Source: Haliangiales bacterium
GTDB taxonomy: Bacteria; Myxococcota_A; Polyangia; Haliangiales; Haliangiaceae
Assembly (NCBI GenBank): GCA_038321315.1
Contig: JBBQEX010000043.1
Location: forward strand, 1 to 62,886
Direction of reading: 5' to 3'
DNA: 62,886 bases
Shown here in pieces: positions 186 to 1,418 of this stretch. Made by a program: the position numbers and the translations under genes. The stretch's first letter is position 1; every line of letters starts with the position of its first letter. The notes below the pieces were generated by a model. It had not been told where the DNA came from. It searched no databases and saw only the letters and a list, made by a program, of their open reading frames with translations.

Positions 186-1418
<1,233 letters not shown>

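Follow-up and report, generated by a model that had tools for sequence, protein, structure and literature searches.

A single in-frame amber codon in a FadA-type thiolase gene of a Haliangiales contig, probably a very recent nonsense allele

Architecture and affinities of the interrupted thiolase gene

The window analyzed here is the whole 62,886-nucleotide stretch of the Haliangiales contig JBBQEX010000043.1, which has a G+C content of 70%. Close to its 5' end, on the forward strand, conceptual translation reveals a reading frame that runs from an ATG at position 186 to a TGA at 1416 to 1418 and comprises 410 amino acid positions plus the terminator. As an earlier note on this DNA had stated, its 411 codons hold only one stop before the natural terminator, a TAG at 1035 to 1037 in codon 284. 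A GAGGAG motif at positions 172 to 177 of the same strand, 8 nt before the ATG, resembles a Shine-Dalgarno sequence and is predicted to act as one; a GGAGG-like motif occupies a comparable spot before the ATG in three orthologous loci (L161, L081, and L082). The TGA at 1416 to 1418 is the natural terminator, since the orthologues end at the same position, with the residues ATIIERV as their last. A search for promoters and terminators near the gene returned zero matches, such a scan being uninformative for a myxobacterium with 70% GC.

The frame (186 to 1418, forward strand) encodes a FadA-type thiolase (acetyl-CoA C-acetyltransferase) by four lines of comparison, namely, the NCBIfam model NF006090, Pfam, 120 orthologues, and solved structures. 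When the conceptual protein with an X at position 284 was used as the query, residues 1 to 410 matched positions 1 to 402 of the 402-position NF006090 equivalog profile with 580.8 bits (cut-off, 514); the frame thus belongs to the family by a full-length match above the curated threshold. Pfam places Thiolase_N (PF00108) at residues 4 to 234 and Thiolase_C (PF02803) at residues 287 to 409, so that the stop falls three residues before the latter domain. The family also calls for one uninterrupted two-domain polypeptide, and here the frame is broken by the TAG at codon 284. On the basis of these matches, the locus is a thiolase gene by descent, a statement about ancestry and not about functional state, which the frame cannot by itself demonstrate. 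No other thiolase gene was found within the 62,886-nt window.

The 120 close orthologous proteins are 407 to 410 aa long and align from end to end with identities of up to 93%; the best of them are 410 aa and, where named, come from Kofleriaceae, Haliangiales, or "Deltaproteobacteria" metagenome-assembled genomes (MAGs). The earlier note was right to describe the gene as a thiolase that is intact but for one amber codon. The search of GTDB representative genomes gave a locus with 90% identity as its best match, so that the species itself is not represented there, and two collection scans yielded 551 and 523 confirmed relatives. The three motifs that the earlier note had described as intact are all present (NRFCGSG at residues 89 to 95, GHPLGATG at 365 to 372, and CIGGGMG at 396 to 402), and the catalytic residues Cys92, Asn334 (in NEAF), His366 (in GHP), and Cys396 (in CIGGG) lie in conserved motifs that align with the structures 3svk and 4b3h.

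These two structures are the closest that have been solved, 4b3h being the Mycobacterium tuberculosis FadA protein (Rv0859), the beta-chain of the trifunctional beta-oxidation enzyme, and 3svk the acetyl-CoA acetyltransferase of M. avium. Residues 4 to 410 of the query align with both from end to end (E value of about 1e-127; 428 to 430 bits), and they share with it the two-domain layout and the Cys/Asn/His/Cys motifs. At residue 284, however, the solved proteins have Ser or Leu, whereas the window gene has the amber codon and its close orthologues have Lys. Unlike the FadA system, moreover, the window gene has no adjoining fadB-like gene in the window; a gene with a PF10136 domain lies downstream instead.

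The amber codon and its ancestral state

In the 120 close orthologues, the column corresponding to codon 284 is occupied by Lys in 98, Arg in 18, Gln in 3, and His in 1, with Glu in none. Among 25 orthologous loci compared at the nucleotide level, 17 carry AAG at this position, and Ser and Asn codons occur in two. The three nearest loci (L001, L081, and L082) read GAG TGG GGC AAG AAG GCG GGC CTC AAG around this position, whereas the window reads GAG TGG GGC AAG TAG GCG GGC CTC AAG. Since these 27-nt contexts are identical save for AAG versus TAG, the event is, on this comparison, a single A-to-T transversion at base 1035 that turned a Lys codon, AAG, into TAG. The earlier note had derived the stop from a Glu codon by a GAG-to-TAG change; its count of one substitution holds, and the comparison with orthologues that it called for replaces the Glu GAG ancestor with Lys AAG. 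No stop occurs at codon 284 in any of the 120 orthologous proteins, nor is there an internal stop at that codon or anywhere else in any of the 25 orthologous loci. The TAG at 1035 to 1037 is thus a premature stop, with T1035 in place of the A of the ancestral AAG, at a position where orthologues have a sense codon one substitution away.

The sequence beyond the stop retains its coding character. A codon-usage score gives about 0.41 per codon after the TAG, compared with about 0.43 before it, and the interrupted frame is not merely open by chance.

TAG is an ordinary terminator on this contig

Genes in the window were called with a self-trained codon-usage caller; a filter based only on GC3 was dropped, antisense frames being able to pass it. 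This yielded about 58 gene calls with a coding density of 94%, of which 40 end in TGA, 14 in TAG (the thiolase-internal codon included), and 4 in TAA. Past each of the TAG codons that end 13 of the approximately 57 other genes on the contig, the coding signal collapses, and among the approximately 58 gene ends only the thiolase TAG has undiminished in-frame signal directly behind it. Five further gene ends showed weaker same-frame signal, one of them at the flagging threshold, and were set aside, as Pfam matches show them to separate complete, unrelated neighbors. The downstream gene (1453 to 3444) is instructive in this regard: it matches positions 3 to 639 of the 639-position PF10136 profile and ends in TAG, with Arg/Ser-rich noise beyond. 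A second in-frame TAG had been suspected in it on account of an 857-aa gene found there in relatives, and was rejected because the window has a different, full-length PF10136 gene in that place and noise after its TAG. Because TAG is an ordinary terminator on the contig, as seen in the 13 TAG-ended genes, in the PF10136 neighbor, and in the lack of any other interrupted gene, a genome-wide reassignment of TAG is excluded.

Locus-specific recoding fares no better. A tRNA(CUA) suppressor was not found in the 62.9-kb window, whose sole tRNA is a tRNA-Asn, and no pyl genes were detected among the 20 window proteins scanned with Pfam. The predicted fold of the RNA from base 1020 to base 1140 (121 nt) has an energy of -60.7 kcal/mol, against a mean of -58.3 for shuffled sequences (z = -0.65), and hence there is no stimulatory structure around or after the stop beyond chance. 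Pyrrolysine insertion and a programmed leaky stop are further disfavored because the stop is kept in no orthologue among the 120 proteins and 25 loci. Readthrough, which the earlier note had ranked as less likely, is therefore pushed further down by its nonconservation, by the normal use of TAG, and by the unremarkable RNA fold. Taken together, these comparisons of sequences provide no evidence for unusual decoding, and the event they describe is in all likelihood not recoding. Given that the column naturally takes K, R, Q, H, S, N, and L, any trace of full-length enzyme arising from basal near-cognate misreading would probably be active; nothing suggests selection for it.

The truncated product and the downstream fragment

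In the deposited NCBI record, the thiolase is annotated as two fragments of 283 and 115 aa. The first (186 to 1037, forward strand) has a Pfam match to Thiolase_N only. It retains Cys92 (459 to 461) and lacks Thiolase_C along with Asn334, His366, and Cys396, i.e., three of the four catalytic residues. It is well established in thiolase enzymology that the Asn, the His, and the C-terminal Cys complete the active site, and by that precedent the 283-aa fragment should be inactive.

The second fragment (1071 to 1418, forward strand) starts at the first in-frame ATG past the stop, 34 nt after it. It holds Asn334 (1185 to 1187), His366 (1281 to 1283), and Cys396 (1371 to 1373) and spans positions 10 to 123 of the 123-position Thiolase_C profile, so that the first 9 are missing. 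No Shine-Dalgarno motif could be read in the sequence before ATG 1071. Because the start has no such motif and the 115-aa piece is without the first nine Thiolase_C positions, a functional two-piece thiolase appears unlikely.

Age of the lesion

Several measures of constraint were compared on either side of the stop. GC3 is 0.93 upstream and 0.92 downstream. In Nei-Gojobori-type estimates against eight close orthologues, the window gene has a median dN/dS of 0.26 before the stop and 0.20 after it, and the baseline among the same eight orthologues is 0.26 and 0.21, respectively. At 266 near-invariant columns, defined by a conservation of 97% or more in the 120 orthologues and including 87 downstream of the stop, the window gene has no private change, compared with an orthologue average of 1.4. 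These columns represent 592 constrained nonsynonymous sites and place the 95% upper bound on neutral divergence since the loss of constraint at about 0.005 for the whole gene and at 0.016 for the downstream part alone; the dS to the nearest relatives is 0.3 to 0.55. There is, then, no sign of relaxed selection after the lesion in dN/dS, in the 266 conserved columns, or in GC3, and no second lesion or frameshift is present in the thiolase gene. With no other decay anywhere in the gene, the lesion is, by these sequence measures, very young or else not in the organism at all.

Searches for a second copy of base 1035

Both alleles were sought in other assemblies. The exact 283-aa and 115-aa products were not found in the contig index, and an exact 35-nt pattern with the first base of the stop left free gave zero matches in metagenome contigs. 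Protein-guided scans of genome and metagenome contigs recovered only relatives 87 to 90% identical, all of them intact. Seven full-length versions of the protein, carrying K, Q, E, Y, W, L, or S at position 284, were each looked up exactly, and none is on record. A 121-aa query centered on the stop produced no spanning product above 88% identity from other assemblies; it apparently returned only proteins of similar length, and fragments of about 213 to 400 aa could escape it.

An independent Logan assembly of run SRR19962015 contains a 3,009-bp contig that is 100% identical to window positions 8678 to 11683 (3,006 bp), an identity by which this run contains the same strain. That assembly lacks a complete thiolase of either allele, and the genes adjoining the thiolase, whole in the NCBI contig, are not complete in it either. 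A literature search on the run returned no papers. The matching Logan contig (L164) ends at position 11683; over its final 390 bases it matches positions 12909 to 13293 as well, at 79% identity. Two tandem paralogues lie in this region on the reverse strand, at 11186 to 12697 and 12790 to 14280, both with vWF_A, VWA, and YfbK_C domains, and this tandem repeat is a likely cause of the fragmentation of the Logan assembly.

A side result of the searches concerns short thiolase products of 124 to 204 aa encoded on long contigs of 75 kb to 4.9 Mb (P0146, P0147, P0159, P0173, P0202, P0211, P0242, and P0246). Their presence in public MAGs and genomes indicates that broken or mis-started thiolase calls recur in assemblies.

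A very recent null allele and its alternatives

The explanation that we consider the most probable, with some confidence short of conviction, is a real and very recent nonsense allele, either fixed or segregating. Under this scenario, an A-to-T change at base 1035 would have converted Lys-284 (AAG) to TAG in a FadA-type 3-ketoacyl-CoA/acetoacetyl-CoA thiolase of an uncultured, soil-type myxobacterium of the family Kofleriaceae (Myxococcota), and, with TAG as an ordinary terminator in this host, translation would end after residue 283. The product would keep the acyl-accepting Cys92 and lack Asn334, His366, and Cys396, making the allele null but for a trace of misreading product. The mutation may be newly fixed or may be a segregating loss-of-function variant that became the assembly consensus. 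We infer the presence of T1035 in the organism's DNA from the quality of its surroundings. The contig is otherwise clean: 94% of it is coding, the thiolase is its one interrupted gene, and no leftover coding signal shows in the gaps between genes, frameshifts being covered here through the coding density and the residual signal in gaps of 150 nt or more. Only 2.4% of the possible substitutions in the thiolase gene would create a stop, and by our own estimate of Illumina error rates, a random consensus substitution with that effect would be unlikely. The clean contig, the 100% match to the Logan assembly, and these estimated error rates would together make a random stop-creating consensus error unlikely.

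The earlier note had listed recent pseudogenization, an error, and readthrough as candidates, which proves to be the right set. The chief competitor is an artefact of sequencing, assembly, or consensus building, in which the organism would have AAG and an intact thiolase and T1035 would be a miscall or a minority variant; we regard this as unlikely, albeit a serious contender. That the gene is, apart from base 1035, indistinguishable from a functional one in the 266 columns, in dN/dS, and in GC3 is just what such an artefact predicts, and the source contig is metagenome-assembled. The same strain is seen only in short pieces in Logan (the 3-kb contig), which suggests modest coverage, and the frequency of short "partial" thiolase products on long contigs in public MAGs implies that broken calls are not unusual. 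Against it stand the perfect agreement with a second, independent assembly along 3,006 bp, the apparently low error rate of a contig with 94% coding density and no other interrupted gene, and the small share (2.4%) of random substitutions in the gene that yield a stop. Substitutions in short-read consensus sequences are rare, and errors in long-read consensus sequences are mostly indels; none of the latter, the usual long-read error, was noticed in the window.

Considerably less probable, and in our view improbable outright, is a gene that remains functional, whether through a suppressor tRNA, near-cognate decoding at a useful rate, pyrrolysine, or a split thiolase produced by reinitiation at ATG 1071. 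The tolerance of the column, which accepts K, R, Q, or H in orthologous proteins, S and N in orthologous codons, and S or L in the solved homologues, means that an active enzyme would result from nearly any residue inserted there; the stop sits at the junction of the N- and C-terminal domains with an in-frame ATG 34 nt on; and the lack of decay would equally fit continued selection. Yet the stop is found in 0 of 120 orthologous proteins and 0 of 25 loci, so that there is no conserved recoding signal, and TAG ends 13 other genes on the contig, including the neighbor with a full-length Pfam match. The sole tRNA of the window is a tRNA-Asn, no pyl genes occur among the window genes scanned, the RNA fold (z = -0.65) is like that of shuffled sequences, and the reinitiation route would have to start at an ATG without a Shine-Dalgarno motif and yield a piece without the first 9 Thiolase_C positions. 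Were the two-piece route true, the thiolase fold would here be found split in nature. The least probable of all, to which we give hardly any credence, is an older, established pseudogene on its way out of the lineage. The removal of three of the four catalytic residues by the stop would accord with it; however, the gene has no second lesion, frameshift, private change at conserved columns, or downstream rise in dN/dS, and the bounds on neutral divergence (about 0.005 for the gene and 0.016 for its downstream part) leave little room for age.

Comparison with known classes of interrupted genes

Single-nonsense loss-of-function alleles are common in bacterial genomes and MAGs and are the commonest kind of such alleles. 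The thiolase resembles unitary pseudogenes and nonsense alleles in its one-step change, in a truncated product that lacks essential residues, and in its annotation as two fragments. Unlike a typical nonsense pseudogene, it has no accompanying decay at all, which would put it at the young extreme of such alleles or else make it unreal. Amber recoding, for its part, is known from the methylamine methyltransferase genes of pyrrolysine-using bacteria and archaea, and leaky stops occur in some phage and bacterial genes. With these the thiolase has in common an in-frame UAG in a conserved enzyme gene, which by coincidence lies at a position where its relatives have Lys. It differs from them in that the stop is not conserved, TAG is a normal terminator, no tRNA(CUA) or pyl genes were seen in the window, and stimulatory RNA structure is lacking. 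The thiolase-internal stop thus behaves like an ordinary loss-of-function allele.

If the base is real, one beta-oxidation or acetoacetyl-CoA thiolase has only just been lost from the strain, through a routine loss-of-function polymorphism in a gene that is very widespread in the lineage. If it is an artefact, the public 283-aa and 115-aa proteins should be merged into one 410-aa thiolase. In either case, the locus calls for annotation as one thiolase gene interrupted by an internal stop, in place of two genes. Of the more exciting readings, code reassignment is removed from consideration, and pyrrolysine and programmed readthrough are left improbable; the stop matters little beyond annotation.

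Other features of the contig

The extreme 5' end of the contig is occupied by a zero-spacer palindrome (positions 4 to 99) with 48-nt arms that are 92% complementary. A copy with 95% identity over about 86 nt lies at 22853 to 22938, between a gene on the reverse strand (22419 to 22793) and one on the forward strand (23015 to 23989). The palindrome occurs neither upstream of the orthologous thiolases nor in any of the 164 loci fetched. It looks like a dispersed REP/MITE-like element of the lineage, and it probably explains why the contig ends where it does on the 5' side.

The gene that follows the thiolase (1453 to 3444, forward strand) begins 35 nt beyond the end of the thiolase, in the same orientation, and encodes a 663-aa protein with a whole-profile match to PF10136 ("Site-specific recombinase"); it could suffer polarity from the premature stop. 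Two relatives (L162 and L163) carry in its place an 857-aa B12-binding radical-SAM/PhyH gene, and synteny downstream of the thiolase is accordingly not conserved. The next gene (3477 to 5966, forward strand), two genes downstream of the thiolase, encodes an 829-aa protein with an MVP_shoulder domain (2e-25), with Vault_3 and Band_7 matches just below the Pfam gathering cut-offs, and is predicted to be a bacterial gene of the major-vault-protein-like type.

Four genes of the window belong to signaling systems, at 26612 to 28261 (reverse strand), 51496 to 53313 (forward), 38428 to 40467 (forward), and 25856 to 26548 (reverse). The set comprises two Ser/Thr protein kinases, a membrane protein with a SpoIIE-type phosphatase domain, in which a weak 7TM match falls below the Pfam cut-off, and an OmpR-type response regulator. 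A dense signaling repertoire is typical of Myxococcota and fits the assignment to Kofleriaceae. Finally, four gene calls (50662 to 51477, 54418 to 55095, 55323 to 56540, and 56692 to 57630) have low codon-usage scores of 0.07 to 0.18 per codon, compared with 0.3 to 0.5 elsewhere. Three of them are no more than about 3.2 kb away from the tRNA-Asn gene (57649 to 57723, reverse strand) and one is about 6 kb away, and they may be miscalled open reading frames or recently acquired DNA beside the tRNA gene.
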